A stretch of 64,000 nucleotides of DNA, from positions 192,001 to 256,000 of the forward strand of contig CAZLEV010000002.1 of NCBI GenBank assembly GCA_964558645.1. The letters run 5' to 3'. A program made the position numbers and the translations under genes. The DNA comes from an uncultured archaeon. Its GTDB lineage: Archaea; Asgardarchaeota; Thorarchaeia; Thorarchaeales; Thorarchaeaceae. This document shows positions 3,185-58,517 of the stretch, piece after piece (the first letter of the stretch is position 1; each line of letters starts with the position of its first letter). Under the pieces are notes generated by a model. That model had not been told where the DNA came from. It saw nothing but the letters and a program-made list of their open reading frames with translations, and searched no databases.

Positions 3185-4039
3185 GACACCTCTGACAAAG
3201 AGCCACGGAACCCAATGATTGGAAATCAGCCGTGAATGTCGTATCCATTTCTTCCAGTTGCCAGTCTTTACTGCCCAGCCCTCTGTCGATCTCTATGGAA
3301 ACGTGGAGAGAACCAATGATAGGGACATCTTCGGTAGATATCACATAGAACACTATTGTATAAGTCCCCCATTACTCTCCGAGGTTGTCATAGCCAAATA
3401 CGCCTCCCCAGTCACCACGTGTCACGTTCCGGAAGTCCCTGCACAGGTCTACCGTTCATTGTATGTGGGACAAAAGATATGAGTCTTCTTCCATACGAAT
3501 GTGATTCAGGACTAGATGGGTCGCGTCCAGGTTCATCACCATGATGATGGTAGACAAACTCGGACACCAGAGAGTTGTCCCCCCAGGTAAGCGCACTGGG
3601 TGGTCTCTGTCGTGGTCAGCGATACTGTGTGAGTGACCAGCTCTCAGTTGTGGGCTGGAGGATATAGACTCCTATACTGGAGTGTCCCACCCTGTCGACG
3701 TTTTCGGTAGCTGTTGGTCTACCCTTGCTGTATAGCCCAGCTGTTCGAACTCCTCTGACGGCATGTTCAGTAGCTGGTGAGTATAGCTCAGTCTGTTCGG
3801 ACAGTTCCCCCAATCGAGGACAAAGACATCATAGTACAGGACGTTAGAGAACCCAGGGTGCGGCGGAGGTACATAAGACTCCATGATGACCCACTCTCCG
3901 AGGTGGACGTACTCGCCATCTTCAGAGATCTGGTAGTGGGACTAAGGGTCTCGCTCACTATGCTCTGGGAGTAGACTGCAGTGCCCAACCCGAAGGTCAT
4001 CAGGACTAGGCCGACGACTGCCAGGGCAGATGCAGCCAT
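3165..4039 (-). pseudogene. Disrupted membrane-protein gene, probable paralog of 2681-3184, split by the repeat element
   Basis: N-terminal TM (MAASALAVVGLVLMTFG), frameshift near 3944, YYDVFVLDWGN...TARVD, then after the element LCRDFRNVT...GE*(TAA 3372-3374)WGTYTIVFYVISTEDV; resembles FSMYVLTWQD...FENLT...GLYCFVFTTSSEEV of 2681-3184. Confidence 0.7.
3446..3723 (+). mobile_element. Non-coding dispersed element, copy 1 (long form), flanked by 8-bp direct repeats GGTCTACC
   Basis: Starts GTTCATTGTATG (3454), ends GTAGCTGTT-GGTCTACC; direct repeats at 3446-3453 and 3716-3723; homologous to 37995-38175 and 58331-58517. Confidence 0.8.
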
Positions 4040-4277
4040 TTCCCGAGGACAGCCGGTTTCTTGGGATTGATCTGTCCGCCCTCTTGATTTGAGAGCACGG
4101 CTGATGGGTGTGCACTAGGCACAATAGAACTTGAAGAACAACCATGTATCAAGCTACATCTGGTCAGAGCTGCTCATCTGTGCCGTGATTGAACGGATAT
4201 TTAGACGATAATCATCATTCGAGCCGTCGCATCTGTGCACACACAGCTCTTCATCTAAGACCTGGCGACGTAATATC

Positions 4278-4883
4278 TCAACCTACCATTTGCTTTGTTA
4301 TCTCGGCTATCCGCTTTCCATAGTCTCTAGCAATCTCAAGTTCAGCATCGGAGGGCTGTCGAGAACCATCTGAACCTGCTGTTGTCGATGGCCCATACGG
4401 AGTGCCTCCACCCATGTTTGTGTTGATTCCAGGAGAGGTATATCCCTGAGGAACTATAATCATGCCCTGGTGCATCAAGGGAATCATCATCGTCACCAGA
4501 GTGGTCTCCTGCCCACCATGGGGTGTGGCCGTACTCGTAAAGACTCCTGCAACCTTGTTCACAAGCTTTCCTTCGGCCCACAGGCCTCCTGTCTGATCGA
4601 TGAAGTTCTTCATCTGAGCAGTCATATTTCCGTATCGTGTTGGACTACCAAAGATGATGGCGTCGTATTCAGGCAGTTCGTCCACGCTGGCCACAGGGAC
4701 ATCCTTCTGCATTTCCACCCCCCGCTTCAACCCCTCATTCTTATCGATGATCTCCTGCGGGACGAGTTCAGCAACACGTTTCAGATCCACCTCAGCACCA
4801 CCGTCAACGGCTCCTTCCTTCACGGCACGCGCCATCTTCAGTGTGTGTCCATAGCTACTATAATACAATACCAATATCTTCAT
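4278..4883 (-). CDS. wrbA: NAD(P)H:quinone oxidoreductase WrbA
   Basis: [36 protein letters not shown] flavodoxin/WrbA motifs. Confidence 0.95.
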
Positions 4884-5011
4884 GCTTCATCATTGTTAAC
4901 TCGAAGAATATAAACGCAGGGAAACATGCATCAGGATCCAGCCTCTGGCATGATTTTCAGTTCGGAGCAAACACAAGGGTTATAGGCGGAAGTAAACAAT
5001 AGTTAAACATC

Positions 5012-5278
5012 ATGTTGCCAGTCTATCTCGTAGTCGGTGCTGTCGTCCTCACCGCCATCTTCTACGTCTATAGTCGGTATATCGAAACGAGCACCCATAG
5101 AGGCAGCCCCGACCGAACCCCCTATCGCGGGCGGGACATGTGGAGAGCCTCCTTGCTAGATTGCGACTATGAACCAGCGAAGTACGTCTTCGGGCCTGGC
5201 AAGGCGATTCCCGCGGAAACTGGCCTGACTCGGCTGTCCTCTGATACTCCATTCCACGTCCACAAAGAGCACAGCTAG
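5012..5278 (+). CDS. Small hypothetical membrane protein
   Basis: ATG start, N-terminal TM, TATA-like TTATA upstream. Confidence 0.55.
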   Translation: MLPVYLVVGAVVLTAIFYVYSRYIETSTHRGSPDRTPYRGRDMWRASLLDCDYEPAKYVFGPGKAIPAETGLTRLSSDTPFHVHKEHS

Positions 5279-5308
5279 GGCTCGCAGCCTTAGAGGATCT
5301 CTCTGTAG

Positions 5309-5434
5309 ACATCTCATATCAACGATGACACGTTCTTAGCGGTTTTCTACATAGAAGGAGATAGAATAGAGACCCTCTTCATCACGTCGAAGCCAGATTC
5401 CTTCAAGAGGAGAGGTGTGATATGGCCCAAATAG
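5309..5434 (+). pseudogene. 3' remnant of a small RelE/DUF4258-like toxin partner
   Basis: Start-less frame DDTFLAVFYIEGDRIETLFITSKPDSFKRRGVIWPK*, overlapping the start of the DUF2283-like gene. Confidence 0.5.
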
Positions 5435-5610
5435 TAGTCGACTTGGAGAATATGGACATCAGATACGATTCGAAGAACGATGCGGTCTAAGTCAGTTCTG
5501 GACCTGTCCAGGAAGCCGATGATTCCGAGATGCTTCCAAATGGCATTGTTGTACGATACAAGGATGGGCAGCCTATCGGCCTTACTGTTGTCGGGACAAA
5601 GGAACCTTAG
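5422..5610 (+). pseudogene. DUF2283-like (antitoxin-type) gene with internal TAA
   Basis: SD GAGGTG; MAQIVVDLENMDIRYDSKNDAV*VSSGPVQEADDSEMLPNGIVVRYKDGQPIGLTVVG; TAA at 5488-5490 replaces the Tyr of the YD..D.lY motif. Confidence 0.7.
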
Positions 5611-5841
5611 GCGTCAGCCTCTTTCATCATACCAATGGTTTTCTCGTTCAGCGTATTCTTCAAGCGAGAGGAAACGATCTGTCTGGCAGTCGAACTCACC
5701 AGTTTATTGTAAGTTAGATAAACTTGGAGGCCAGAGAGTCGTTTCACTGCGGCCTTTGGAAGGCGCCCTCTGCTGTCCGACATACAACGAACTGTATCGC
5801 CCAGGACGTTCGAGATAGTAGGTCAGTCCCTGCAATGAACA

Positions 5842-8331
5842 CTACGGCCAAGTGTATGGCTTCACCTCTTCCCAGAGAAGTCCCTCTGCAGGGCCAGACA
5901 CCAGCACGAAGTAATAGAGGCCCGTGTGATATCCCTGTAACTCAAGGACTGGACTACTGGGCGTGACGACGAACTCATGCACGACTGTGAGATTGGAGGC
6001 AAGAACAAAACCGAAGAAGTCACCCTCCAGCTCTCCTGCAATGAAATCGTAAGCCATTCCGAACTCTATGTAGATGTATCCTTTAAGCAACCCACCATAC
6101 CAATCCCACGAGTCGACAAGCCAGTGATAACTCTCACCACCCTGAACTGGACTGTCAGCGTTGGACGGCAGCTCGGTGGTTGGTGTCACCACCATGGTGA
6201 TGTTGGCCGGACTGTCTAGAACGTTCTCTTTGATGAAGATCAGTCGAGTGATGGTGGTGGGGCCTGCTATCGGATCGATGACATATCCCGGCCAAGTCCC
6301 ATTCACTATCTCTTTCACGAACGTGTCATTCGTCCCGTCTGACCAGAATCTCAAAATGGTTATCTTCCAGTGTGACGGGTCACCACTCCAGTTGAGGAAT
6401 ACAGAGAAGGCCTGAGTGCTGTTGATATCAATCACCTCGTACACGGACTCTCCGGGTTGGACAGTGGTGGTATCGCCCATAGTCTCGTTATTGTAGGTTA
6501 TCTCTATGCTTGGAACAACCCGCATGGATACTCTCCCACTGGCAGCACCCTCTGTGACCGACTTGATGACCCAGATGCGAGCTATCTTCTTCTCTCCATC
6601 CGGCTCGATGAAGACCTCACCCTCCTGTGTAGTCTTGTTCAGGGGGACTAGGAGGGTCTCATTCGTGCCGTCCTCATAGAATACCAGAACGACGGCCGTC
6701 CAGTTCTGTGCGGGACCACTGTAATTGAGCTGTACTCGGAAGGAAGTGCTGTTGGATATCTCGACCTCCTCGATCACAGCACCGCCGCCGCCTCGAACTC
6801 CCACGGTATCGCCGATTGCTCCTCCGGTGTAGTTAAGTCTGATGTGGGGTGTATAGACTGGAACACCATTAGCGTGGTGAGAATCAAGAAAGAGCCAGCT
6901 GAGAAAGCGGGCATATATCTCGGACCAGGTCATGTTCAGCGCGGTCGCAAGAGCATCCTTTGGATCAACGTTGCGGGCATCTCCGGGTCCGTAGTATCTG
7001 GTCGCATTGAAGACCTCAAGAAGCTTTTCGGCCCCGTAGGTCTCATTGATGAACTTGATGAACAGAAATGATGCCATGTAGGAGTTCCAGCTGTGGTCCC
7101 AACCATGGAAGGGGCTGGTCCCGTTCGTGTCACGGAAATGGTCGAACCAGTTGAGCGAGCCGATGGCACGAGCCATGTCATTCCAGGCCGACATGGTCAT
7201 GTTTGGATAGTTCTTGAGCATGGAATATACTCCCCAGAACTCGGCCATTCCCTCATCCCACCAGTAGTCAGGTTCATGTAGAGGATAATACGAACCACCT
7301 AGTGAGTCCGTGCGGGTCTTGAACTGGAAGAGGTGGAACAGCTCATGCTCCCCGACCACTTTGAGTTCTTCTTTAGTTGCCCTAGTTCCCACTCTGATGA
7401 CGATCTCTCCACTGCTTCTGGATACACCTGTAGACTCAGCAGAACCGCTTCTCACCAGACGGATCTTGATCTCATTTCCGGCTGCCGTGGCAGGATCGGT
7501 GAAGTTATGCTCTCTGAAGAAGTTCAGCGAGAAGTTGATGTGCTCTTTGACTAGAGCAATGACTGATGCGTTCACGCCGGGCCCCGCCGTAACCGTCACA
7601 TTCTCTCCGCGTTGCACATCAGGACGGACTATCCCATCGAAGTCATCAACAAGCCTGATGCTGTTAGTGAACAAGATCTGTTCTCCGCCGAAATCACCAG
7701 TTGTTGTGAAGAGCTCGGTATTCGGCTCTCCGGGAGTCTGAATGGTTGATATCCATGAGCTGGAGTATCCTTCGGAGTTTCCCATGAGTGAGATCGAGTG
7801 GTTGTCGCCAGGAGAGATACTCACGCCCATCTCCTCATTGGGCCAATCACCCATGACGGGATCACCATTGCCTCCTCCGTATCGCATGAAACTGACGAGA
7901 GCACCGGTAGCGTCGTGGAGACCCACTTCGTCGCCGGGAAGATCCAAGTGCTTTGTTGTTGAACCTGTATAGATAGTCGCCTGTCCGTCACCCACATCGA
8001 GGTCATTGGTCCCCGAGCCAGACACAACCAGAATGAATGCGAACTCGGAGTCACCGGTCAAAGTAGGTAACACGATACGGTCGTCATCATATGTTGTGAG
8101 GATCCAGCCGGTGATGTCCTCAAGACCCCCGTCCGTATAGAGCTCTACATACTCAGGAGAGTCGTCATGACTGGGCATGACTTCATTGATTATGATAGCC
8201 TGAGATGAAGCGGAGGGAATGTCTCTCAGTTCGACAGGCTGTTCGGTTTTCGACAACTGAAGATAGACATAGGATCCAGCTGCAACTCCAATAATGAGAA
8301 TAACGACGAATGCAACTATGCGGCGGTTCAT
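5842..8331 (-). CDS. Membrane-anchored extracellular metallopeptidase: lamin-tail domain + HEXXH gluzincin + repeated beta modules
   Basis: N-terminal TM; IIINEVMP...EYVELY (LTD); HELFH...WWDEGMAEF; many N-x-S/T sequons. Confidence 0.8.
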   Translation of the reverse strand: MNRRIVAFVVILIIGVAAGSYVYLQLSKTEQPVELRDIPSASSQAIIINEVMPSHDDSPEYVELYTDGGLEDITGWILTTYDDDRIVLPTLTGDSEFAFILVVSGSGTNDLDVGDGQATIYTGSTTKHLDLPGDEVGLHDATGALVSFMRYGGGNGDPVMGDWPNEEMGVSISPGDNHSISLMGNSEGYSSSWISTIQTPGEPNTELFTTTGDFGGEQILFTNSIRLVDDFDGIVRPDVQRGENVTVTAGPGVNASVIALVKEHINFSLNFFREHNFTDPATAAGNEIKIRLVRSGSAESTGVSRSSGEIVIRVGTRATKEELKVVGEHELFHLFQFKTRTDSLGGSYYPLHEPDYWWDEGMAEFWGVYSMLKNYPNMTMSAWNDMARAIGSLNWFDHFRDTNGTSPFHGWDHSWNSYMASFLFIKFINETYGAEKLLEVFNATRYYGPGDARNVDPKDALATALNMTWSEIYARFLSWLFLDSHHANGVPVYTPHIRLNYTGGAIGDTVGVRGGGGAVIEEVEISNSTSFRVQLNYSGPAQNWTAVVLVFYEDGTNETLLVPLNKTTQEGEVFIEPDGEKKIARIWVIKSVTEGAASGRVSMRVVPSIEITYNNETMGDTTTVQPGESVYEVIDINSTQAFSVFLNWSGDPSHWKITILRFWSDGTNDTFVKEIVNGTWPGYVIDPIAGPTTITRLIFIKENVLDSPANITMVVTPTTELPSNADSPVQGGESYHWLVDSWDWYGGLLKGYIYIEFGMAYDFIAGELEGDFFGFVLASNLTVVHEFVVTPSSPVLELQGYHTGLYYFVLVSGPAEGLLWEEVKPYTWP

Positions 8332-8464
8332 AGGCTCACCTTCTCGTGGCCTTCACTATGGTTAACTAACTATTTAACGGTTTCTTTTGTATCCTGATAA
8401 TCTGTTTCTTGAAGTTAGGTGAGTGAACGTCACCTGTAAGAAACTTCTGCGTTCCACCCCTCCC

Positions 8465-9562
8465 CTAACTGGGGTATTTCCTCTTCAGTGCTTCAAGCGG
8501 GATGGTGACCATCCAGTCTCTACCGACCTTCCAACTGCCGTTGTCAAGATCGTAATTCTCGGGATAGAACCAATAGAGCGAGCTGTGATTCCCAACTGTG
8601 TCCATGGTGAAGACCTTCAGCTTGGGGAGATACCTCCAGAGTGAATAGAAGAGACGGTGTTCGTGAGTGGGAGGCATTCGTCCCCATATCAGGACTGCAT
8701 CCTGACTCAAGAGATCGATTGACAGGGGGAAGGGAGGCGCATCGTCTCTCTGAAGAGCGTTGAATATCTTCTGCCGGACTCCTTTTGCAGCCTGCGAGCA
8801 GTAGAAGAGCTTCGTTGACGTGACATCAAATCGAGACCTGTCAATCCTGGCACGTATAGACTCGATGTACTGCTCCTTCACGGCCGTCATCTTTCTGCTC
8901 GCTGTGCTCTGGGAGATGGAATATTTCTCCTGTAACTCGCGTTGAGAGATGTCTGCATTCGATGTCAGGTCTCTCAGGATATTCAGTTCGACTGAACTGA
9001 GCTGTGGTGGTTGAAGGTTTTGCTCTGCATCACCAGTCTCTGAGTCAGAGCCGTCAATCACACTCAACCACTTACTCCAATCGTAGTCCCAAGACTGACT
9101 CTCAGAATCAAACCTCTCCAGATTTACGGGCGTGGAATACCGATGCCCGATGCTCGGTATATCTTCTGCATCGTCACAGAAACCAAGCCCTCTGAGACCG
9201 GATAGGAACTCGGAGAGGAGTTGAGCACCTGAAGGAGGGATATCAAACTGCGTGAAGAGACCAGCCGACGGGCCGTAGATTCTAGATCTGTAGTGTGTAT
9301 AGGGATGAAGGTCACATGCCATCTCTAGCCGCTCCACCTGCGTTTCAGATGAAGCATCGAAGAACACAACATGGCGAACAAGACCGAGGCTGCCAGGGTT
9401 GAAGACAGCATAGGAGTTGGATAGAATGCCGGATTCTCTCAGTTGTTCAATGTGTCTGTTTGCAGTGATCCAGCTCGTCCCTACGTTCTCAGCGAGTCTC
9501 TTCACTGCTATCGTAGGTCTGAGTTCGAGTATCTGTAGTATTCTCAGATCAATCTCACTCAA
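8465..9562 (-). CDS. Tandem winged-helix Lrp/AsnC-like transcription regulator
   Basis: Two HTH units (DLRILQILE...AVKRLAENVG; ELNILRDL...ISQRELQEKY); TTG start after GGAGGTGA. Confidence 0.8.
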   Translation of the reverse strand: MSEIDLRILQILELRPTIAVKRLAENVGTSWITANRHIEQLRESGILSNSYAVFNPGSLGLVRHVVFFDASSETQVERLEMACDLHPYTHYRSRIYGPSAGLFTQFDIPPSGAQLLSEFLSGLRGLGFCDDAEDIPSIGHRYSTPVNLERFDSESQSWDYDWSKWLSVIDGSDSETGDAEQNLQPPQLSSVELNILRDLTSNADISQRELQEKYSISQSTASRKMTAVKEQYIESIRARIDRSRFDVTSTKLFYCSQAAKGVRQKIFNALQRDDAPPFPLSIDLLSQDAVLIWGRMPPTHEHRLFYSLWRYLPKLKVFTMDTVGNHSSLYWFYPENYDLDNGSWKVGRDWMVTIPLEALKRKYPS

Positions 9563-9650
9563 TGTCAGAGCTCTTCACCTCCCGAGGACGGCTTGTCATG
9601 CGCTCACATCAGCTTTTCATTACGGTCACGGTATTCGTCAATCTTCTCCG

Positions 9651-10145
9651 TTATGCCGTCACAACCAAGGATCCACAGGGATCGGCATCACCCGAGCCGC
9701 CAGGCGGGTCAAAGGTGTATTCAGCTGCGCAGTATGCAACTCCCCCAGTGTAAGAAACGATCTCGACCGAGAAGGTGTAGTCCCCACTCTCCGTAGCATG
9801 ATTGTAGAAGTACATCACGCAGTGCAGCAACTCCAGGCGGGTATTGACCACATAGGCATACGAGTATACTGTGCCAGACGGAAGGGTTAGAGATGTATAC
9901 ACGTCAAATGTATATCGTGACTGGCCCGATAGCGTGATGTCGAAGAATCCGACAACATCGTCTTCTAGCCCATCATCATCGGCATCACAGTAGTATGCGT
10001 CAGTGATCTCAAGCGTGATGGAGACCTGTTCGTTGGTGCTCTGCGTTGTCGCTGTAGAGGCAGAAACTACAGGTAAGATTGAAACTAGACCCACACACAG
10101 CATGAGGATCAGAACAGAACGGATTAGCACTGTAGTTTTTCTCAT
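9651..10145 (-). CDS. Hypothetical secreted protein
   Basis: Signal peptide from ATG 10145 (track extends to 10202); DADDDGLEDD Ca-loop-like motif. Confidence 0.7.
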   Translation of the reverse strand: MRKTTVLIRSVLILMLCVGLVSILPVVSASTATTQSTNEQVSITLEITDAYYCDADDDGLEDDVVGFFDITLSGQSRYTFDVYTSLTLPSGTVYSYAYVVNTRLELLHCVMYFYNHATESGDYTFSVEIVSYTGGVAYCAAEYTFDPPGGSGDADPCGSLVVTA

Positions 10146-10290
10146 AAGAATCAGGCAGAGTTGCGCAGAATGTGATATAAATTCTTTGAGAGCCAGCTTC
10201 ATAATGTACCCAATGCTGAAGGTCGAGTCCCCCCTCCTTACTGAAACTGAATGACTACCTCACGGAGGCAGCAGTAATCTCGTGCCGTTC

Positions 10291-10854
10291 TCAGCCGCTC
10301 TGTGGTACGGTGAAGGTCCTGCTGACCGGTTCAAGAGTGAGATCCACGACGGGGTTGTCGAAGCCGGGAGGAGTGACCTTGACAGCGATGGTGATGGTCA
10401 GGTGAAACTCGCCACCTGTCGTGAGTCCATCCTCTGGACCAAGAAGAGTCATGACTTCTTTAGCACCCGTCCCTCTTAGACTACCCGGAGTCAGGACAAA
10501 GACCAGACTAGTGTTTGCCGGGGTTGTAAGATTGAAGGTTATGGTTATCTCAACAATGGCTCCCTCTTGGTCGTCGTCTCCGCTCACTTGAGTCCTTCCG
10601 GTGTTCCTCGCCAGCATGTACTCGTACGGGTTCATTGTGGTGACATCTACGTCAACATCTGTCAACCCTACGTTGAATACAGGAGCCTGCTTCGAATCAA
10701 TATCCGATAGCGATGCGGTAGCCAAGGGTGAGGAGACTGATAGCCCAAGAGAAACCTGTGCAACATCCACGTTCGTTCCGTAAATGGCAATCGGCAGAAT
10801 CACCAACGCGGCAAGAACAATCACCAGAACTATACCAGCTTTCTTCTTCAACAT
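10291..10854 (-). CDS. Hypothetical secreted/membrane-anchored protein
   Basis: KKK + hydrophobic signal, beta-rich body. Confidence 0.75.
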   Translation of the reverse strand: MLKKKAGIVLVIVLAALVILPIAIYGTNVDVAQVSLGLSVSSPLATASLSDIDSKQAPVFNVGLTDVDVDVTTMNPYEYMLARNTGRTQVSGDDDQEGAIVEITITFNLTTPANTSLVFVLTPGSLRGTGAKEVMTLLGPEDGLTTGGEFHLTITIAVKVTPPGFDNPVVDLTLEPVSRTFTVPQSG

Positions 10855-10980
10855 GCATTCATTCCTTGACGTTCGAAATCTACAGGATACAGTTGGTAGA
10901 ATGAGTTATAAAACTTGAGGCCAGTAGATTAATATTCCACCCACCTTTTAGCCAGAACAACATTTTTGGAGAGACACGGT

Positions 10981-12291: not shown

Positions 12292-12299
12292 CTAGAATT

Positions 12300-16552: not shown

Positions 16553-16565
16553 TTCAGATGTTAGT

Positions 16566-18923: not shown

Positions 18924-20477
18924 CTACTCCTCCTGGCCGAAATCCTTCCTCAGTTCTCGCTTCAGAATCTTACCCGCACCTGAGATATAGGGGGCGAAAC
19001 TATCCACAAAGACTACTGACTTGGGTATCTTGAATTTTGCGAGTCTTCCTTTGCAGAAGTCGATTATCTCCTCCTCTGTGGCATCCTGTCCGGATTCGAG
19101 GACAACAAGAGCGCGTCCTACTTCACCCCATTTAGCATGGGGAACGCCAATGACCTGCACCTCGGCAATCTTCGGATGCTCTTCCAGAAGTTTCTCAATC
19201 TCTCGAGGATAGACGTTTTCCCCCCCGGAGATGAACATATCCTTCACCCGGTCTACCACGTAGTAGAATCCTTCGTCATCGAAGTAGACCATATCGCCTG
19301 TCCTAAACCATCCGCCTTCATCTAAGAGAGTCTTGTTGAGTTCTGGGCGGTTCCAGTATCCTATAGTGACCGTGGGACCTTTGAATAGAAGTTCACCAAC
19401 CTCGTTTGCGCCACACTCCTTAGCTGTTTCAGGGTCAACTACTTTCGCATCAATGAAGAAGTTGGGGGTTCCAATACTCCCAATCTTCTCCTCAGCATGC
19501 CACGGATCTAGAGCGAAGCAGCCAGGTCCAACCTCAGTCATCCCGAAGCCCTGTTTGAATCTGACTCCGTGTACCTTCTGGTACGTTCTGATGAGGTCAA
19601 GTGGAAGAGGCTCGCCGCCCGATGTCAGAAACCTGACACTGCTGAAGTCAACTGATTCAAAGTCCGGATGGTTCATCAACATTCGATATTGTGTCGGAAC
19701 GGCGAAGAAGAAATTGGGGCGCTCGTTGTTGATGATGTCTATCAGGGCATCTACGTCCCATCGTTCCATCTGTATTACCTTCCCCCCCAGAATAAAGAGC
19801 GGGATTGCGTAGACATACAGTCCTCCGACATGAAAGAGTGGAAGGTGGTTGATGTAGACATCGCCGGGGAGGATGTCGCGGATGGTGTTGAGCGTGTTGA
19901 AGGCAACATGCCTATAGGTGATCATAGCACCTTTCGGCAGGCCTGTGGTCCCGCCTGTATAGACTATTCCCATGGCATCTTCATAAGAGAGGTCCACTGT
20001 TTCAGGAGGACTGGTTGGTGAATCCGTCACGCTTTCTTCATAGCTCAGAGATTCGTTCAGCTCAGATCCAGTTCTGTCTAATGCCACCCAGTGCTCTACG
20101 CTTACCCTGTCTTGTAGAGCGGATACCACTTCGGCCACATTCGAGTCGTGGAACAAGACGGTGGGCGCAAGGTCATCAATTAGGCCTGCTAATTCTCGTG
20201 CCACCAGACGCCAGTTGAGAGGACTGAAGATGCCCCCGCACTTCTGACATCCAAAGAACGCCTCCCAATACTCCAAGCTATTATGTGCGAGGATGCAGAG
20301 CCGATTCCCCTTTTGCAATCCGGTATCTTTTTGCAGGAAATTGGCGACCTGATTCGCTCGCCTGTTGAACTCTCTGTAGGTGTATCTCTTTCCACTGCCA
20401 ATATCAACAATAGCTTCAGCCTCAGGCGAGAAGACTTCTCTTTTGGATAGATAGTCGAACTGATTGGCCATTGACAT
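18924..20477 (-). CDS. Long-chain fatty acid--CoA ligase (AMP-binding)
   Basis: YTGGTTGLPKG, GFGMTE, FRTGD, SGGENVYP, GKILK. Confidence 0.93.
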   Translation of the reverse strand: MSMANQFDYLSKREVFSPEAEAIVDIGSGKRYTYREFNRRANQVANFLQKDTGLQKGNRLCILAHNSLEYWEAFFGCQKCGGIFSPLNWRLVARELAGLIDDLAPTVLFHDSNVAEVVSALQDRVSVEHWVALDRTGSELNESLSYEESVTDSPTSPPETVDLSYEDAMGIVYTGGTTGLPKGAMITYRHVAFNTLNTIRDILPGDVYINHLPLFHVGGLYVYAIPLFILGGKVIQMERWDVDALIDIINNERPNFFFAVPTQYRMLMNHPDFESVDFSSVRFLTSGGEPLPLDLIRTYQKVHGVRFKQGFGMTEVGPGCFALDPWHAEEKIGSIGTPNFFIDAKVVDPETAKECGANEVGELLFKGPTVTIGYWNRPELNKTLLDEGGWFRTGDMVYFDDEGFYYVVDRVKDMFISGGENVYPREIEKLLEEHPKIAEVQVIGVPHAKWGEVGRALVVLESGQDATEEEIIDFCKGRLAKFKIPKSVVFVDSFAPYISGAGKILKRELRKDFGQEE

Positions 20478-37994: not shown

Positions 37995-38175
37995 GGCATA
38001 CCAACAGCTACCGAAAACGTGGACAGAGTTGGGCATGTCAGCGCAGGAGTTTATGTGCTCCAGCCCATGAGAGCTGGTCATTTTCACAGTATCGCCGACC
38101 ACGACAGAAACCACCCACTGCCGTGACCTGAGGGGACAACTCTCTAGTACCAAGTTTGCTCAACATACAATGAAC
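37995..38175 (-). repeat. Non-coding dispersed element, copy 2 (181 bp, inverted)
   Basis: Reverse complement reads GTTCATTGTATGTTGAGCAAAC...AGAGAGTTGTCCCC...TCTGTCGTGGTC...GGGCTGGAG...ACGTTTTCGGTAGCTGTTGGTATGCC. Confidence 0.9.
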
Positions 38176-38229
38176 GGTTCTGAAGGGAAAGAGTATTGAG
38201 ATAGCTCCCCTGATTCTCGGTGATGAACC

Positions 38230-50020: not shown

Positions 50021-50276
50021 TCATTTCTTATGAAGTAATCTGAAAGAATGTTCTGTGGTAACTAGAGCTCTGTGTTCGAAAGCAGGTATTAGTAGGACTA
50101 TGCACACATACTTAACGATTTGAAACGCAAAAAGGGGAGATGCGAAATCATGCTATCATCAAATTCCAGAGAATGCGGAACTTGTTTCTGTGTGTTGCCA
50201 CTCTTCCTGCTGTGAATCGCAGGTCTTGTCGCTGGAACGCAGAAGTATCTTACAGGGGAGGTTCACCAAATTGTAA

Positions 50277-50644: not shown

Positions 50645-50852
50645 TTGCCAGATCATCTGTGGTTTTAGATACTGTCCCACATCATCTGACGGTACCATAC
50701 GTATCAAAGACAGTTCCTTACTATCAGTTCCAAAAGACTCGTCGGTCGGACGGGTTCACAGGAGATTAGCCTTCCAAAAAGATGGTTACATTGGAACACG
50801 CGTTCCAAATGGCAGTAGCAATAGAACCGGGATGCTTCGCTTAGGATGGGTA

Positions 50853-52193
50853 TTACTGAGGGGCGCTCTGCTGAAGAGGAGATTCTAACTCAGATGGCCC
50901 CTTAGATTTCGATGCCATTTGCTGATTTGCCCGATCCTCCAAGTTCCGTGCTGCTGGTGCAAGCATAACCGCCGCACTCAGTACCGCGGTCACAACACCA
51001 GAGATTAGAAACCAGAGGGGTACGCCAAAGGCATCAGCAAATGGGCCTGCAAATGCAAGACCCACGGGCGACATTGCAGATGCACCACTTACGATGAGCG
51101 CAAAGACACGCCCTTGCATGTCGGCGGGAATAGTAATCTGAAGGAGAGCAAGGATCAGTCCATTGAATATGGGAATCATGAATCCGACTAAGAAGAGCAT
51201 CAATACAGCAAAGTGGAGATAGTCGGGTGGCGTGAGGCCGACAAGGACGGTCCCGACTCCCTCAATTACGAGAGCAAAGAGTGCTACTCGCATCTTCCGA
51301 CTTGGGCCACCCCAGATCGTGAGGAGTACTCCTCCGAGAACCATTCCTAAGGAGCTGGCGGACTGGAGAAGAGCGAGTGTGACCTCATCACCTCCGAAAT
51401 GAACGGTGCTAAGAATCGGTATAAGAGAGAAGGCTGGAGTCGATACCAGGTTCAATACCATTGCGAGAGCAAGAATCAGAATTGCCCCTGGCCAACCGCG
51501 TAGAAATCTCAAGCCTTCGACCATGTCCTTCAACGGATTACTCCCCGCCTCCATCGTTTCCTGTGGGGGTTTTGGGATGCGAATGAAAGCCAAGGACGAC
51601 ACAGCAGCCGCTGCAGTTAGGACATCAACTAGCAGGAGCTGATGCATGGGCAGGATGACAAATAGGAGAGCTGCAACGGGCGGGGCCAGCACGTTGGCGA
51701 GGCCATTCAGAGCCTGATTCATGCCGCCAACACGTGGAAGCTGATCCTCGGGAACAAGCATTGTTGTCGATGCTTGCATCGCTGGCCAATGAAAGGAACC
51801 CAGTACTGACCCGAGCAGTATGACAGCATACATATGCCATATCTGAACAATGCCAGGCAGAGCGAAGGAATTCAGATAGAACAGAAGTGCCAAACCTCCC
51901 GTGAGAACTGCAGTGAGCGAGTCTGCCACAATCATGACATGCCTACGATCCCATCTGTCGACCAGAGAGCCAGCAAAGGGAGTAATAGCAACCTGTGGAG
52001 CGACGGCTGCTATTGATGCTATTGCAAGAACCGTTGCAGACCCGGTCTCCAGAGTAAGCCACCAAACGATAACGAAACGGACCAGACGGCTACCGAAAAG
52101 CGAAAACGCCTGTCCCACCCACATGGTAGCAAATGGTTTCATCGATGCTGGGCGATGGATCTCACGCCCCGCAGGTGATTGCGTTTCGTTCAT
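50853..52193 (-). CDS. MFS transporter (MefA-like efflux)
   Basis: About 12 TM, GSLVDRWDRR motif A, MQGRV. Confidence 0.92.
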   Translation of the reverse strand: MNETQSPAGREIHRPASMKPFATMWVGQAFSLFGSRLVRFVIVWWLTLETGSATVLAIASIAAVAPQVAITPFAGSLVDRWDRRHVMIVADSLTAVLTGGLALLFYLNSFALPGIVQIWHMYAVILLGSVLGSFHWPAMQASTTMLVPEDQLPRVGGMNQALNGLANVLAPPVAALLFVILPMHQLLLVDVLTAAAAVSSLAFIRIPKPPQETMEAGSNPLKDMVEGLRFLRGWPGAILILALAMVLNLVSTPAFSLIPILSTVHFGGDEVTLALLQSASSLGMVLGGVLLTIWGGPSRKMRVALFALVIEGVGTVLVGLTPPDYLHFAVLMLFLVGFMIPIFNGLILALLQITIPADMQGRVFALIVSGASAMSPVGLAFAGPFADAFGVPLWFLISGVVTAVLSAAVMLAPAARNLEDRANQQMASKSKGPSELESPLQQSAPQ

Positions 52194-52440
52194 TATCAGG
52201 TCACGCTATGAAGGTGTGCGCTCGGAAGAGAGTTATAAGAGGTAGGTAACTAGCAAATGAAACCAATGCAAGAATCACCAAAGAGCACCCATCGCTAGGT
52301 TTCAATCAAGTGGCTCTGACGGGATTGAGCCGATGCTGGCATCGGTACGAATTCCAGTCCTGTCTGAGAGAAGCCCTGAAGAGTGCCGGTAACACAAATG
52401 CCTTTGATATGTGGTTGAAGCAGAAACTAGAGTGCTCCAA

Positions 52441-53067
52441 ATGGAAGGACCTGCAGTTCATCTCGCAGCAAGACAACTCAGTGTACTCGAGGGGCAGACC
52501 ATCCAAGAGGTACGTGGGAATACCCCTAGGCCCCTTGTTCGCCTACAAGGCGAGGAAATTGAAAAGGTACGAGCCATTGGAAATCGTCTCTTCATTGATA
52601 CAACTGGTCCATCCATGGTGACTGACTTCAGTATGGACGGTAGCTACAGTATCAACAATGATCAGGTAGACCCAGAGGAACTGGTCATCAGCTGTTCAAG
52701 AGACACGTTCAGTGTTTCCATCGACAACGTCAATGTATTGGATCCAGACAGCGATGAATACAGAGAACACAATCACCCGAGTCGCGATGTGCTGTCTGAA
52801 GATTTCGATAGAAAACGAGCCCTCAACGCGATGAGCAGCGATAACCGGGTTATCGCAGATGTACTGCTTGACCAAGACATATTCGGAGGTGTCGGGAGTA
52901 TCATACGGAACGAGACACTGCATGCGAGCAAGATTGACCCGAAGACTATATCTTCAAGCATTCCAAGAAGGAAAGCAGAGGAACTAGTTTCGCAGGTTAT
53001 CGAATTCGCGAACGGCTGGCTGGAGATAAAGACCAAGAGTGAGATTCTCCACCGCGTTCAGTTGTGA
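52441..53067 (+). CDS. Fpg/Nei-family H2TH protein, degenerate
   Basis: MEGPAVH N-terminus, LLDQDIFGGVGSIIRNETL H2TH; no zinc finger. Confidence 0.8.
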   Translation: MEGPAVHLAARQLSVLEGQTIQEVRGNTPRPLVRLQGEEIEKVRAIGNRLFIDTTGPSMVTDFSMDGSYSINNDQVDPEELVISCSRDTFSVSIDNVNVLDPDSDEYREHNHPSRDVLSEDFDRKRALNAMSSDNRVIADVLLDQDIFGGVGSIIRNETLHASKIDPKTISSSIPRRKAEELVSQVIEFANGWLEIKTKSEILHRVQL

Positions 53068-53160
53068 CTCCTTTAATGCTCTGTTCAAACAAGGATTCCG
53101 ATGATTAGCTACAGAATCATAGTCTGAGCCGAGGTAATCGGTGCTCGCGTTTCGGCCCTA

Positions 53161-54081
53161 TCACATCTTGGTAAAGAGCCATTCTATGAGACCTGTACCC
53201 TCTGCATCGCTACCGAGTAGCTTGTGTATTGCCATCTCTTCAAAGAGCTCAGTACGACCTCGGCCAAATTCCCGTTCAAATCGGACGAAAGAAGTCGGAG
53301 AAATGACCTTGGATTTGAATCTGTACTCATCATCGGTCTCAGTGATGACCGTGGTGAGGGCCCCAACTGGCATTCTGACTGGATCATCTACGAATTGAGT
53401 CTCGACATCCACAGATCTGACCTGAGCATATCCGTCCTTGGTTGAGAGTCCTCCAGACGGGTGGGCCTCTCCGTCCACAATGTCACGACGAAGACCAATA
53501 GAGAAATCGGGAAACTGAGCATGAAATGCATACCAACTATCTATGTGCCAATCACGAGCCCCCCAACTCTTGTCACGCTGCCCCAATCCGTTCAGTTGAA
53601 GGGTTCGTCCGTCTTCGATGTTGATAATCCCGGTGACCCGCCCCGATTGCTCGAAATGGCCGGCCCACGAAGTGCCACTCCCTCGCCCGAAGTCGAATGG
53701 CGGAAAACGGCCCTTCCATCGAATGTCTGCCTCCAGCGTGGGCCCCGTGAAGTTGATGGACCAATCACTCAAGGGTTTGTTCATCTTGAAGGACAGGTTC
53801 CCATCATCTAGAGCCTCCCCCATTTCGTCGGGAACAGAGCCCTCGGGCTCCATGAAATACACCTCTCGCCTGTCATCATAGAAGAGAGCAAATACAAACT
53901 CTCGTTTGTCCACGTTGGGTAGCAGCCCGATGGTTGTGAATCCGGATACCCCAGAGTCAGAATCCACCCAATTGAAGTAATAGCTCTCTCGCCAGTCTGG
54001 TCTCTCTCCAACCTTGTGCAGGTATTCGGCACTTGAATCGAGTTCAGTCATCTTTGGAGTTCTCCGATGTCGATTGTTCAC
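53161..54081 (-). CDS. Hypothetical protein, AttH/tocopherol-cyclase-like beta fold
   Basis: WRESYYF, HFEQSG, GQRDKSWGARDW. Confidence 0.75.
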   Translation of the reverse strand: MNNRHRRTPKMTELDSSAEYLHKVGERPDWRESYYFNWVDSDSGVSGFTTIGLLPNVDKREFVFALFYDDRREVYFMEPEGSVPDEMGEALDDGNLSFKMNKPLSDWSINFTGPTLEADIRWKGRFPPFDFGRGSGTSWAGHFEQSGRVTGIINIEDGRTLQLNGLGQRDKSWGARDWHIDSWYAFHAQFPDFSIGLRRDIVDGEAHPSGGLSTKDGYAQVRSVDVETQFVDDPVRMPVGALTTVITETDDEYRFKSKVISPTSFVRFEREFGRGRTELFEEMAIHKLLGSDAEGTGLIEWLFTKM

Positions 54082-55235
54082 TCAGGCAGCAGGTAGAATG
54101 TCGGGTCAGACTCCATCTCATCGTCGAGCCTGAACAGTCGAATGAAGGCAGGATCGGCCTCTTCGTCCATGAAGAACGGCACATGTTCTTCAATCACATC
54201 TGATGAGAGTTTCCAGTCTACTTTGTTGGTGATACCCACTCTGTCGGTGAATCGTTTGAATCCGCGCCAGTAGACCTCAGCACCAGCAATCAACAGCCTT
54301 CGTTTATCCCACTCAGCGAACTTCATGTATAACTCAGCTTGGGCCGCATCAGCTGCCTCAGCATACGCAGGGAGCTCGTCAAGTCCAAGACGTACCACCT
54401 TGTCGCCCTTCTTTGTGTACGCACCGATTCCCGTAACATACTTGGAGTAGTCACCTGGCTCAATAGTCATCGTTCCTATGTCATTGAATTTTGCATCCAC
54501 ACCCTTGATAGTCATTGCAACTCCAAGGGACGAGGTGGGCAGTTTTGCCTCAGTATCTGACCAAGGCATCCAGAGATCGCCCTGACCGTCATGCATGTTT
54601 GTGTATTCTGAGAAGACAAGAATCTCATCCTCGTTCACAGAGTAGGGCCCATGATCGATGATTTTCGCCCTTGCTTCACACTCGTCCAGGAAGGCATACA
54701 AGTCCACAGAACCCATTATTCGACGCGTCTTTTTGACCTGATCTTCTGAAACGGGTTCCATGATGCTCATCAACCAATCAACGGTCTCATTATCCATTGC
54801 ACGGTTGACTGCTCCCGATGCTGCGATGGTCGGCTCACCCGAGTTGAAGTAATTCGTTGCCAAACGGTACCAGTTTTCCAACATGTACTTCCATTGCTCT
54901 TGACGCTCAGCTGGCTCTTGTGACGGGTCACCATCCAGTTTATTGAAGATAACGCCCATCCTTGCCAATGCGTAGTATAGCCAGAGGTAGCTGATGGATA
55001 GACCATGTACCTCGGATAGCAGCGTCTTGCTCTGCTGCGCAAGCTCCTCGGGGGATATCCGCTCCCAGACCTGACTCGTGACATCATAGAGTCGTTCATA
55101 GGTCTGATAGAAACCGACACAGATGTATTCATTGACCGGAAAGAGCTCCGATTCAAGCAGTCCCCGTTCAACAAGAATGTCGGAGAATACACCGGATAGA
55201 TGTGCAATGAGTTTGTTGATTTCTCTGGTTTTCAA
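54078..55235 (-). CDS. Hypothetical protein, candidate substrate-binding subunit of the neighbouring PEP-utilising module
   Basis: Long clean ORF with ELFPV and DHGPY motifs; role inferred from context only. Confidence 0.7.
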   Translation of the reverse strand: MKTREINKLIAHLSGVFSDILVERGLLESELFPVNEYICVGFYQTYERLYDVTSQVWERISPEELAQQSKTLLSEVHGLSISYLWLYYALARMGVIFNKLDGDPSQEPAERQEQWKYMLENWYRLATNYFNSGEPTIAASGAVNRAMDNETVDWLMSIMEPVSEDQVKKTRRIMGSVDLYAFLDECEARAKIIDHGPYSVNEDEILVFSEYTNMHDGQGDLWMPWSDTEAKLPTSSLGVAMTIKGVDAKFNDIGTMTIEPGDYSKYVTGIGAYTKKGDKVVRLGLDELPAYAEAADAAQAELYMKFAEWDKRRLLIAGAEVYWRGFKRFTDRVGITNKVDWKLSSDVIEEHVPFFMDEEADPAFIRLFRLDDEMESDPTFYLLPE

Positions 55236-55436
55236 GTGGATTCTACTCCTCTCTTGAGAAATCTGTCGAATGGTGGGTACGTATTAAAGATATCAGGAGA
55301 AGTGATGCGATGATTCGGCATCTTCTGATATCCGTGAAGACAATTGGGTAATCAACGACAAACACCGAACTGATGTTCATCATTCTTTTAAGATTCGCAT
55401 GGTGCGTAGTGAAAACCATTTGAGAGCGTTCCCATA

Positions 55437-55787
55437 TTGAAGAGAATTGGAAAAGGTCTAATCACATTGAAGTTGGAAGCCACTGGTGAACTCAGAGTAA
55501 TCGAGTCCATCCAAGATGTAATTAGCCTCTGGAAAGAAGGGGCGGAAGGAAAGATTGCCTTGGTCGAAGATGCGGGAACAACAACACTAGGCCCTATCAT
55601 GCCCAAGCTTGCAGGGGTCGTCTGCAGCTCTGGCGCACTTGGTTCACACCTAGCTATAGTAACGCGGGAATTTGAGATACCTGCACTTATGGGAACCACT
55701 CTTGAGACCGCTGAGAACCTAGATAGAAGATCTGTCACTATCCGCCCAGACGATAACGGCGCCGGACTCCTATTACTCAACGATTAG
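55437..55787 (+). CDS. Stand-alone PEP-utilising enzyme mobile (phospho-His) domain
   Basis: GALGSHLAIVTREFEIPALMG. Confidence 0.9.
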   Translation: MKRIGKGLITLKLEATGELRVIESIQDVISLWKEGAEGKIALVEDAGTTTLGPIMPKLAGVVCSSGALGSHLAIVTREFEIPALMGTTLETAENLDRRSVTIRPDDNGAGLLLLND

Positions 55788-55805
55788 AGGTGGGGATAGG
55801 TCAGT

Positions 55806-56789
55806 ATGACGGAGAGTCGAAATCTGAAGTTCTTAGACCAAATAGACCCGAATGAATCAGAAGGATACGGCGGGAAGACCTCGGGTCTTGCAAGGTTAAC
55901 CAGACAAGGCTTTCGGGTCCCTAAGGGATTTGCTGTTCCATGCGTCTATTTTCAGGACCTGCTCACAGTGAGACCTATGATTGGGCAAGCTCTAAGCAAC
56001 ATTAATGCGTCTACTGAACCGGAAGAGATTCTTCATGCATCGGCACTGATCAGAGATGCCCTCCAGGACTACACCCTCCCTGAGCACCTACAGAGAGAAA
56101 TCGAAGAGGCCTTCTCGAAGCTTGAGTGTGAATGCCTTGGAGCTCACGGTTACGCGGTGAGATCGTCAGCTAACATTGAAGACACAAGTACCGTTTCTTT
56201 CGCGGGACAGGCGACTACATCCCTCTGTGTTCCCGATCTCGAATCCGTCTTGACCTCGATAAGAGAGACTTGGTTTTCTCTCCTTTCGCTTGAGGGGCTG
56301 CTCTATCTGAAGGCGAAGAAAATCCGGATTGAAGATGTGCGCATGGGTGTTATTGTGCAGGAGATGGCAGCGGCAGATGTGTCAGGGGTTATGTTCACTG
56401 AAGATATCGTTGAGTCAAGGCCCGACAGAGTATTGATAGACTCGAGCTGGGGGCTTGGAGAAATGATTGTAGCGGGAAAGATTACGCCGGACAGCTTCGT
56501 CGTGCAGAAAGACCCACTTCATATCCTTCGGAGAAGATTGGGGTCGAAGAAGTTCATCGCAACGCCCAGTACAGGATCTGATCTGGACGGCTTCGCGGTC
56601 GCTGAAACATCAACCCAGAAGAGAGCAGAACTCTCGCTCGACGATGAACAGGTCCTGCAGATTGCAAGGACTGGATTGGAGGTTGAGGAGAAGATGGGGA
56701 CACCACAAGACATAGAGTGGTGTTTAGATGACAAAGGCATCATTCTTCTTCAGGCACGACCGATCACCACGCTCCAAAGCAGGTCCTAG
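55806..56789 (+). CDS. Stand-alone PEP/pyruvate-binding ATP-grasp domain (PPDK_N / PEP synthase N-terminal)
   Basis: GGK, VPKGF, AVRSSA..ED...SFAGQ, WGLGE, PQDIEW, LQARPIT. Confidence 0.93.
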   Translation: MTESRNLKFLDQIDPNESEGYGGKTSGLARLTRQGFRVPKGFAVPCVYFQDLLTVRPMIGQALSNINASTEPEEILHASALIRDALQDYTLPEHLQREIEEAFSKLECECLGAHGYAVRSSANIEDTSTVSFAGQATTSLCVPDLESVLTSIRETWFSLLSLEGLLYLKAKKIRIEDVRMGVIVQEMAAADVSGVMFTEDIVESRPDRVLIDSSWGLGEMIVAGKITPDSFVVQKDPLHILRRRLGSKKFIATPSTGSDLDGFAVAETSTQKRAELSLDDEQVLQIARTGLEVEEKMGTPQDIEWCLDDKGIILLQARPITTLQSRS

Positions 56790-57022
56790 AACATGTTGAT
56801 GCAGATTGTCAGCGGCTTGATGAGCACAACATCATGCAGCAATCTCCCGGGTTATTCTTGACTCGCATGATTCAGGGCAAACTGAGGACGTTGCATGGGT
56901 CTCGGGTAGACCGCATTCTGGCCTGAGCCGCATCCCGTGCATTCATTTCGATGTCGTACAGCAAGCGATGTCAGTGCAGCATTATGCGCTTGACAGCTGA
57001 CCTAAATTGCAGAGAGAGCCGA

Positions 57023-57310
57023 TTATGGGGCCCTAAGGATACGCAGTGACTGACCGGGCTCGACAGCGATTGCGTCTTCGGGACAGGCGTCGACACATTT
57101 CATGCAGCCCATACACATGGAGGGCCATACCGGTGTAATCTTCCATCTCTCTGGGTTCCACGGGTCGGGATGTTCCTCCAATGTCGGATGCATGAGAAAC
57201 ACTGCTGGATCGCATACATACAGGCATTTCCTGCACTCACGAGGGTCTTGAGGGGCACCTGGGCCACATTTCGAGTAATCAATCGCGATCTTAGTCTTCT
57301 TCACCTTCAT
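57023..57310 (-). CDS. 4Fe-4S ferredoxin
   Basis: CRKC...C and CMGCMKCVDACP. Confidence 0.88.
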   Translation of the reverse strand: MKVKKTKIAIDYSKCGPGAPQDPRECRKCLYVCDPAVFLMHPTLEEHPDPWNPERWKITPVWPSMCMGCMKCVDACPEDAIAVEPGQSLRILRAP

Positions 57311-57315
57311 GCCTC

Positions 57316-58185
57316 CTAGTAGTTTCCCGCCTGACCCGGGACCTCCTCACGTGGAACCAGTTCGAGGGCATCATAATTGCATGCGTGTCTGCAGACACCA
57401 CAGCCGAAACACTTGTCCAAATCAACGACGACTCTTCCAACTGAAGGCAGGTACCTTAGGGCGTTGAACTGACACATGCTAACACACTGCTGACAGCCCT
57501 GACAATTATCTTGGTTGATGTTGATGACATACTCTGCCTTGTAAACGGTCTTCAGGCCGAAGTCGTTTCGGAGGCGGAGACCGCCACATTCAGGACTCTC
57601 ACAGGAACAGATTGCGTTGATGTACGGTATTGGCTGGAACCAAACAGAGGCCACGTATCCCTTCTTGTTCTGCCGTTCGAGGGCCTCAATTGCCTCTTCG
57701 CGGTCAAGACGATACTTGGTGTTTTCAGGGATATATCTCGGGAGTTTCTCGATGATGCCAGACAACTGACCAAAGTTGATACAGACAGCATCCTTTACAC
57801 CGCGTTGCATCCATCTGCACAGGCAGTAGTTCTTGATGATTGGCTCCGCAGCAAGGTTCCCGAGTATATGCTGGGCATCCTCAAGAGGAATCACCTGACC
57901 AAAGTGCCCGTCTGCTCGCTTCGGGACCCGAGCGTGACTCTCACTGTGTATCTGACGTTCTGCAGCTGCGCGCAAAACGCGTCCGATGATAGGCATCTGC
58001 ATCTTGTAGCCAAGACCAACCGAACTGAAGCCCATGACCTTTCGAATAAACAGCGTTTCCATGTTCTGCCACTGTTCTTCCAAGTATTCCCGCATGTTGT
58101 ATTCATCGGCTAGTTCGTCAGAATAGAGGCGAGCGTTGTTGTACCACTTACCGCCTTCTCCGTGCTTCATACACCATTCACACAA
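57316..58185 (-). CDS. 4Fe-4S dicluster domain protein
   Basis: MCEWC.KHG, CLCR, ICSC; CQGCQQC...CQF and CFGCGVC...C. Confidence 0.9.
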   Translation of the reverse strand: MCEWCMKHGEGGKWYNNARLYSDELADEYNMREYLEEQWQNMETLFIRKVMGFSSVGLGYKMQMPIIGRVLRAAAERQIHSESHARVPKRADGHFGQVIPLEDAQHILGNLAAEPIIKNYCLCRWMQRGVKDAVCINFGQLSGIIEKLPRYIPENTKYRLDREEAIEALERQNKKGYVASVWFQPIPYINAICSCESPECGGLRLRNDFGLKTVYKAEYVININQDNCQGCQQCVSMCQFNALRYLPSVGRVVVDLDKCFGCGVCRHACNYDALELVPREEVPGQAGNY

Positions 58186-58330
58186 TTTGATTCACCGTGC
58201 CTGCTGAAGTACGACCATCAGAATTGCAGTATTTAAGACATGATGGCATATGGAGTGGTTACATCGTCACTAAGCTAAGTACTCCCACCTCCTTTGGAAC
58301 CTGTCTAACAGCACGGCGTCATGCCTTAGC

Positions 58331-58517
58331 GTTCATTGTATGTTGGACAAACTTGAACACCAGAGAGTTGTCCCCCTCAGCTAACGGCACTGGGTGGTTT
58401 CTGTCGTGGTCAGTGATACCGTGTGAGTGACCAGCCCTCAGTCATGGGCTGGAGGATATAGACTCCTACGCCGAAATGTCCAACTTCGTCCACGTTTTCA
58501 GTAGCTGTTGGTGTACC
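58331..58517 (+). repeat. Non-coding dispersed element, copy 3 (187 bp)
   Basis: GTTCATTGTATGTTGGACAAAC...AGAGAGTTGTCCCC...GGGCTGGAGGATATAGACTCC...ACGTTTTCAGTAGCTGTTGGTGTACC. Confidence 0.9.

Follow-up and report, generated by a model that had tools for sequence, protein, structure and literature searches.

The window analysed here is a 64,000-nucleotide stretch of an archaeal genome assembly (G000:C2:192001–256000; the assembly comprises 3.63 Mb in 37 contigs and is 93% complete with 6% contamination), and it carries three copies of an unannotated repeat, referred to as copies 1 to 3 in order of position. The repeats are very probably protein-less, non-autonomous derivatives of IS607-family transposons, that is, mini-transposons resembling miniature inverted-repeat transposable elements (MITEs). 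This assignment is based on the homology of both ends to IS607-type elements, on a complete parent element in a related genus (locus L125), and on insertion without target duplication next to GG or GGG. An earlier note on this DNA had described a multi-copy, non-autonomous, protein-less mobile element that is not a classic MITE with terminal inverted repeats. Both statements agree with the data, as 15 copies and empty orthologous sites were found, and the elements have neither terminal inverted repeats nor a target-site duplication of fixed length. The site-specific, non-DDE mobilisation proposed in the note is also retained, while the candidates named for it (IS110, IS200/IS605 HUH, tyrosine recombinase or retro-mobility) are replaced by the IS607 family, to which the ends belong. 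The note had made the novelty of the element depend on ends that match no described family; they match the already described IS607 family, and the element is not of a new kind, nor is a new mode of mobilisation indicated. Gene-less elements that keep their ends and a guide scaffold are already known, and what is new is a member in a different archaeal lineage with an unusual parent.

Ends and Parent Element

The working strand of the elements is the reverse complement of the one on which they were first read, and the orientation given in the earlier note is thus inverted. The end taken as 5′, GTTCATTG..., reads ...CAATGAACGG when reverse-complemented, and corresponds to the right end (RE) of IS607-family transposons, whereas the end taken as 3′ is the left end (LE). 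On the working strand, the elements consist of an LE of about 50 nt that contains two TTGGAC repeats, a spacer that is short and variable, a conserved TATA-like box, and an RE module of about 105 nt.

Homology links the RE module to the 3′ end of tnpB genes for proteins of about 720 aa, and the module terminates in ...GTCCAAG-N3-GTCCAAC-N10-GAACGG. A genome-wide profile search of G000 gave 11 matches to the TnpB zinc ribbon (PF07282), and the end first read as 5′ adjoins tnpB on the opposite strand on contigs C14, C1, C5 and C6. The first ~65 nt, counted on the strand first read, match the last ~30 nt of the tnpB frame, including the stop-codon region, and a tail of ~33 nt. The last ~75 nt are common to tnpB-linked and short forms across seven genera (alignment A5). 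The tnpB products have 561–733 aa, and display a TNB zinc ribbon and weak matches to OrfB_IS605; in the protein encoded on C14, OrfB_IS605 covers residues 486–607 and TNB covers residues 627–703. The RE module has the placement of an omega-RNA, in that it aligns with the tnpB-linked RE including the stop-codon region, is co-directional with the gene, and ends at the RE boundary.

The first ~50 nt of the short elements match the sequence directly upstream of genes that encode a MerR-type helix-turn-helix (HTH) and a Resolvase domain (alignment A4). The same LE is found directly upstream of intact genes for a MerR-HTH serine recombinase (TnpA) in G020, G021 and G022, which belong to related genera. 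A possible link between repeats of the AGTTGGACA type and IS607 was tested by a motif scan; a loose scan for TTGGAC pairs was too noisy, and a stricter motif was used. It located an LE-type repeat at C5:222135 of G000. A MerR-HTH-like open reading frame (ORF) follows this repeat, and a tnpB relic and its RE lie 4.9 kb downstream. A tblastn search with the serine recombinases of the relatives revealed three decayed relics of the serine-recombinase transposase gene (tnpA_S) in G000, all outside the window and each preceded at a short distance by a TTGGAC repeat of the LE type. They are located at C2:462460–462849 (462390–462849 with the LE), C5:222181–222430 (222112–222430 with the LE) and C1:506316–506429 (506273–506429 with the LE); for the relics at C5:222181 and C2:462460, an alignment of the LE with the short elements was obtained. 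The repeats of the two ends correspond to each other, with two TTGGAC motifs in the LE and two GTCCAA motifs in the RE, spaced with a period of ~10–11 bp and inverted between the ends, as in IS607.

A complete parent element was found in G021 on contig C7 (L125:3428–12094, minus strand), and is a long copy with ORFs between the same ends, of the kind that the earlier note had proposed to look for. The element spans 8.67 kb, and contains, in order, the LE, tnpA_S, an ORF of 1874 codons that runs on the other strand, a gene for a 727-aa TnpB, and the RE. The giant ORF has no Pfam match and is 38% identical to its counterpart in G000. In G000, an oversized TnpB is encoded head-to-head with a giant 1874-aa protein at C14:53933–61939, with no transposase, and modules of this oversized-TnpB/giant-protein type in G000 belong to an IS607-family transposon. 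The LE motif of the short elements was not found within the 600 nt that precede the tnpB genes of G000; the giant gene occupies that place, and in the intact G021 element the LE lies on the far side of tnpA.

IS607 elements do not usually carry a giant cargo gene between their tnpA and tnpB. Aloposons, the giant-gene transposons of Heimdallarchaeia, were compared by description and rejected: their tandem genes for 3000–6000-aa proteins, their integration at tRNA genes and their ParA-like ATPase do not fit, and tnpB is absent from the description. G000 also harbours a decayed IS607-type element of 4.9 kb at C5:222112–227012 (L121:612–5513), formed by an LE, a tnpA relic, ORFs of 795 and 233 aa that represent cargo with no Pfam match, a 206-aa TnpB relic, and an RE. 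A second class of TnpB with different ends is encoded at C2:431076–432761, C10:75040–76815 and C26:35666–37342 of G000; these proteins have 558–591 aa, with the zinc ribbon at about residues 390–445 and a long C-terminal tail. A fragment at C2:272218–272287 that looks like a short element matches the coding region of the C26 tnpB gene instead. Inspection by eye showed tRNA-like genes a few hundred nucleotides downstream of several tnpB right ends in G000 (C6:136160–136420, C2:24750–25180, C26:35100–35660 and C2:432770–432900).

Insertion Sites and Junctions

Eight empty orthologous sites, which the earlier note had proposed to look for, were found by comparison of G000 with genome G001. Copy 2 is absent from its orthologous site on G001:C16, which is empty between positions 19587 and 19594, and copy 3 is absent from its site on G001:C93, where a single CC is present and the length is exactly as predicted. 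Conversely, six insertions of G001 have empty orthologous sites in G000. None of the eight sites shows a target duplication; a single GG-like dinucleotide is left, and insertion took place next to GG or GGG. The length of five of the eight sites is exactly that predicted by a model in which the crossover occurs at a shared GG. The aligned elements agree with this picture, since the LE is preceded by GGG in 52 of 66 and by GG in 62 of 66, and the RE ends in ACGG in 57 of 66. The junctions thus have the features of IS607: GG at both junctions, a (G)GG target, no terminal inverted repeats, and no target-site duplication. The last bases that the earlier note counted as part of the element (..ACC(C) and (A)CCG..) are in fact the GG/GGG junction dinucleotides that element and target have in common. 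Neither a circle junction nor a clean empty-site joint was recovered in the contigs of the sequencing runs.

In a rival model, the repeats are palindrome-associated transposable elements (PATEs) of the IS200/IS605 type, moved as single-stranded DNA by a Y1 HUH TnpA and inserted 3′ of the tetranucleotide GGGT without duplication. Such elements share with the repeats a tnpB-type RE and insertion directly 3′ of a conserved tetranucleotide with no duplication of the target; two of the eight empty sites fit an IS605-type boundary better, and PATEs that encode an omega-RNA have been described (10.1101/2023.03.14.532601). This model is disfavoured by the serine-recombinase-linked LE and the better fit of the junctions to a shared GG, with five of the eight empty sites at the GG-crossover length, and we consider it very unlikely. 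The LE lies directly upstream of serine-recombinase genes and not of Y1 genes, and tandem TTGGAC repeats, inverted between the ends, take the place of subterminal hairpins. As in IS607, both junctions carry GG and the target is rich in G, whereas the transposon-adjacent motifs (TAMs) of IS605 elements are TA-rich (10.1101/2023.11.20.567912). A Y1 TnpA was detected in only three of the 31 genomes searched from the taxonomic family, none of which belongs to the genus, and a search of G000 for it gave no match.

The empty sites bear also on the view that the repeats are a family of structured noncoding RNA genes of the host, or an element moved by an IS110-type enzyme, a tyrosine recombinase or retro-mobility. 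The sharp, asymmetric ends and the conserved internal motifs are compatible with this view, yet it is scarcely credible in the light of the other data. Presence/absence polymorphism at orthologous sites shows mobility; no Rfam family was matched; the DEDD domain of IS110 transposases (PF01548) has no match in G000; and neither a poly-A tract nor variable 5′ truncation is seen, the copies being full length. Moreover, both ends are explained by IS607-type elements.

Copy Number and Distribution

BLAST and an nhmmer profile identified 15 full copies of the window subfamily in G000, with pairwise identities of 60–88% (median, 79%). A further ~12 full copies belong to sister subfamilies that share the two end modules only, and such numbers greatly exceed what chance would give. 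The three copies of the window are, therefore, not the only ones in the 3.63 Mb of the assembly, the case that the earlier note had named as speaking against a mobile family. Of 24 other genomes from the taxonomic family of G000, 16 contain relatives of the element, whereas a set of 16 genomes from outside the family gave none. Several genomes have at least 20 matches among those listed. Among 32 loci of relatives sampled by their RE, 24 are full-length short elements and five comprise an RE only; in three of these five, a tnpB-sized open frame (~700 aa) runs into the RE.

The family in this genus is probably old and now immobile, as indicated by the 12–40% divergence among copies, the decayed tnpA relics, and the lack of an intact transposase among the three genomes of the genus. 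The short elements of G000 are clustered, with about six on the 62-kb contig C15, five on C13 and three on the 27-kb contig C28, which begins with tnpB; six or seven lie within 85 kb around the window (C2:188–273 kb). The clusters suggest variable regions or regions rich in mobile elements. Relatives in a freshwater-sediment metagenome (run X3) also carry many copies, and the contigs of this run with a match to the element (58330–58517) together reach ~30 times the depth found for the flanking gene.

A Predicted Guide-RNA Module

Covariation was counted in an alignment of 66 sequences (A3) for four named helices of the RE module: H2 (GGUC/GACC), H1 (CAGAG/CUCUG), H3 (CCCAG/CUGGG) and H4 (GGACAA/UUGUCC), the last of which crosses H1. 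Pairing is observed in 83% of the helix cells, versus 36–49% with slid partners, and both-sided changes are found in 57 cells, versus at most 35 in controls. The covariation score was reached by none of 500 shuffles. Helix H1 occurs as CAGAG/CUCUG, CGGAG/CUCCG, AGGAG/CUCCU and GGGAG/CUCCC, whereas helix H2 is poorly registered in the alignment. Covariation provides moderate support for a structure formed by these helices, and a structured-RNA component, which the earlier note had suspected, is accordingly predicted for the RE half of the elements.

A TATA-like box of the TTTATATA type precedes the module. Its core, TATAT, is kept in 56–62 of the 66 elements, and it is located at a fixed distance of 29–31 nt before H2, with the end of the RE a further 102–106 nt on. 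The box is missing from tnpB-linked right ends, where the region encodes the zinc ribbon, which implies that it was gained by the short form or kept in it. From its conservation and spacing we infer that the short form may carry its own promoter for a scaffold of ~105 nt that reads into the flank. We lean slightly towards the view that the RE module is a still working omega-RNA gene, driven by the TATA box of the element itself.

The mechanism established for the IS607 family suggests how the elements would move. A MerR-HTH serine recombinase (TnpA_S), supplied in trans, would bind the subterminal repeats, release the element in the form of a double-stranded circle through a crossover at the GG dinucleotides, and insert this circle at another (G)GG. 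The transcript of the RE module would run into the flank, which thereby would become the guide; a TnpB encoded elsewhere would cut empty sites composed of GGG and the flank, and recombination would restore the copy.

Several observations weigh against this interpretation of the repeats and of their RE module. Three of the eight empty sites deviate by 1–2 nt from the GG-crossover prediction, in orthologues that are ~10% diverged. The alignment of the short elements with the tnpB coding sequence of G000 is no longer clear beyond helix H1 in the upstream direction. No intact serine recombinase (PF00239) was detected in the three genomes of the genus or in the heavily populated genome G014, all of which are incomplete metagenome-assembled genomes (87–95%), leaving room for an unassembled transposase; across the taxonomic family, a serine recombinase was detected in 10 genomes out of 31. 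The RE modules of the window copies fold no better than shuffled sequences (z-scores of +0.4 to +0.9); the z-score is above 0 in five of the six modules tested, and whole elements likewise fold no better than shuffles. No asymmetry between G–U and A–C combinations that could assign the transcribed strand was found (84 versus 81). The contigs of X10, the one RNA run with any cover of the stretch, cover the neighbouring gene only, and none lies over the element. Finally, Rfam has no match at the gathering threshold over the window, nor over copy 3 with E values up to 10; this silence is expected because omega-RNA is not curated there. In addition, the covariation term of RNAalifold was near 0 for the 15 copies in the orientation first read.

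These data leave considerable weight, although less than an even chance, to the reading that the repeats are inert debris, that is, IS607-type MITEs in which the RE module does not work as an RNA gene. The helices and the TATA-like box would then have been kept only because successive master copies had to retain TnpA-binding and parental sequence. Minimum free energy z-scores near or above 0, the lack of strand asymmetry in wobble pairs and of RNA cover on the element, the 60–88% identity of the copies, the disrupted RE of copy 1 and the decay of tnpA are all in agreement with it. Against it stand the compensatory changes on both sides of H1, H3 and H4, which occur between subfamilies as well as between genera, and the maintenance of the TATA-like box and its spacing within an otherwise variable region that tolerates insertions of 20–35 nt. 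The box, moreover, is not part of the tnpB-linked RE.

A working omega-RNA module could have a further role. The short elements might be self-promoted, stand-alone guide-RNA genes kept by selection as a guide library for the ~720-aa TnpB, which we regard as unlikely. If this were true, dozens of guides per genome, set by the insertion sites, would exist across the whole archaeal family, and the giant-protein partner would perhaps also be served by the library. The guides would act in homing or retention, or in targeting or regulation at the level of the host, and would outlast the loss of the transposase from the lineage.

Copies in the Window

All three repeats reported in the earlier note were found, with coordinates that differ by at most 2 nt and with end-to-end alignment. 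With copy 3 as the query (58331–58517), BLAST gave 85% identity for copy 1 (E value, 2e-52) and 83% for copy 2 (E value, 2e-46), close to the ~80% estimated by eye, and the alignments of the copies with their flanks show the sharp ends and unrelated flanks that had been described. The absence of a transposase or recombinase from the window is also borne out for the five families searched genome-wide, as PF07282, PF01385, PF01548, PF01797 and PF00239 have no match in C2:192001–256000. The statement that the ends are not inverted repeats is true of the termini, but a 17-nt subterminal inverted repeat had been overlooked, with CTTGGAC-AAAG-TTGGAC ~25 nt in from one terminus and GTCCAAG-TTT-GTCCAAC ~14 nt in from the opposite one.

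Copy 3 is a complete short element of 188 bp at 58330–58517 on the minus strand, with the LE at 58517 and the RE at 58330; the junction dinucleotides, counted in this span, are CC at 58516–58517 and CG at 58330–58331. The two subterminal TTGGAC-type repeats of the LE were located in the alignments at 58478–58493 (minus strand), and are putative TnpA_S binding sites, because the motif is found also upstream of serine-recombinase genes and by analogy with IS607 (PMC6188088). The TATA-like box, TCTATATCC, at 58453–58462 (minus strand) is the putative archaeal promoter of the guide-RNA module, as judged from its conservation and spacing. The RE module, at 58330–58435 (minus strand), is the predicted omega-RNA scaffold of ~105 nt, on the grounds of tnpB 3′-end homology and covariation. 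It holds helices H2, H1, H3 and H4 and the two GTCCAA repeats, and ends in ..GAACGC where the consensus is ..GAACGG. If the scaffold is transcribed, the guide portion would correspond to the flank directly 3′ of the RE, at 58310–58329 (minus strand), in accordance with the architecture of TnpB and its omega-RNA (10.1101/2023.11.20.567912).

Copy 2 is a complete short element of 183 bp at 37995–38177 on the plus strand, with the LE junction GG at 37995–37996 and an RE that ends in ..GAACGG at 38177; it has an internal 4-nt deletion with respect to the consensus. Its RE module, the predicted omega-RNA scaffold by alignment, covariation and homology to tnpB-linked right ends, is located at 38072–38177 (plus strand). 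Copy 1, at 3452–3723 on the minus strand with the LE at 3723, has a disrupted right end, in which the terminal 21 nt of the RE (3454–3474) are split off, and its nhmmer match spans model positions 1–179 only. The disruption is caused by a unique 78-nt insertion in the RE repeats, at about 3475–3552, flanked by a direct repeat of GACAAA at 3469–3474 and 3553–3558. No further copy of this insert was found across the genome, and it alone accounts for the extra length of copy 1. A weak, degenerate right-end fragment of a fourth copy is located at 5702–5744 (minus strand), and matches model positions 145–187 (nhmmer E value, 0.006; BLAST E value, 0.001).

Comparison with Known Systems

The assignment settles the nature of a conspicuous unannotated repeat family, and its orientation, boundaries and target motif allow correct masking and annotation. 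It also connects the family with a parent of unusual make-up, an IS607-type transposon of 8.7 kb that encodes an oversized TnpB and has a gene of 1874 codons. Composed of the LE, a putative promoter, a predicted scaffold and the RE, the short elements represent natural minimal substrates that could define the guide RNA, the TAM (predicted to be GGG) and the transposase-binding sites of this archaeal TnpB lineage. They further offer a test case for gene-less elements as trans-acting guide-RNA genes, a role proposed for bacterial PATEs.

IS607 has neither terminal inverted repeats nor target duplications. Its TnpA binds short direct repeats; it also has a subterminal inverted repeat, which is imperfect, and GG at its termini, and its target is (G)GG (PMC6188088). 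In CboIStron, an IS607-family element of Clostridium botulinum, the target/TAM is TGGG and the scaffold ends in ..UCGG, where the C at position −3 prevents self-cutting (10.1101/2023.11.20.567912). The window family resembles the IS607 family (IS607, IS1535, ISC1926 and CboIStron) in its end repeats, its GG junctions, the position of tnpA beside the LE, a tnpB whose omega-RNA (here a predicted one) runs into the RE, and a scaffold end of ..CGG as opposed to a target/TAM of ..GGG. By contrast with that family, the window elements are gene-less (~188 bp) and have no group I intron. Their parent is also unusually large, at 8.7 kb; it encodes a TnpB of ~720 aa and contains, between tnpA and tnpB, a gene of 1874 codons that runs on the opposite strand.

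ISC1733 is an IS607-family element in the ISfinder classification. Its transposase mobilises SMN1, a non-autonomous Sulfolobus element of 320 bp (PMC3718332). SMN1 and the window elements are alike in being archaeal, gene-less and short, and in needing a transposase in trans. To our knowledge, neither a guide-RNA scaffold nor a promoter of its own has been described for SMN1. The IS200/IS605 PATEs of Geobacillus stearothermophilus are likewise gene-less, are reduced to LE and RE, often encode an omega-RNA for a TnpB acting in trans, and outnumber autonomous copies (10.1101/2023.03.14.532601). They differ from the window elements in that they depend on a transposase of the Y1 HUH type and have single-stranded hairpin ends and TA-rich TAMs, whereas in the window elements the LE is of the serine-recombinase type, the ends carry repeat motifs, and the junctions are GG.

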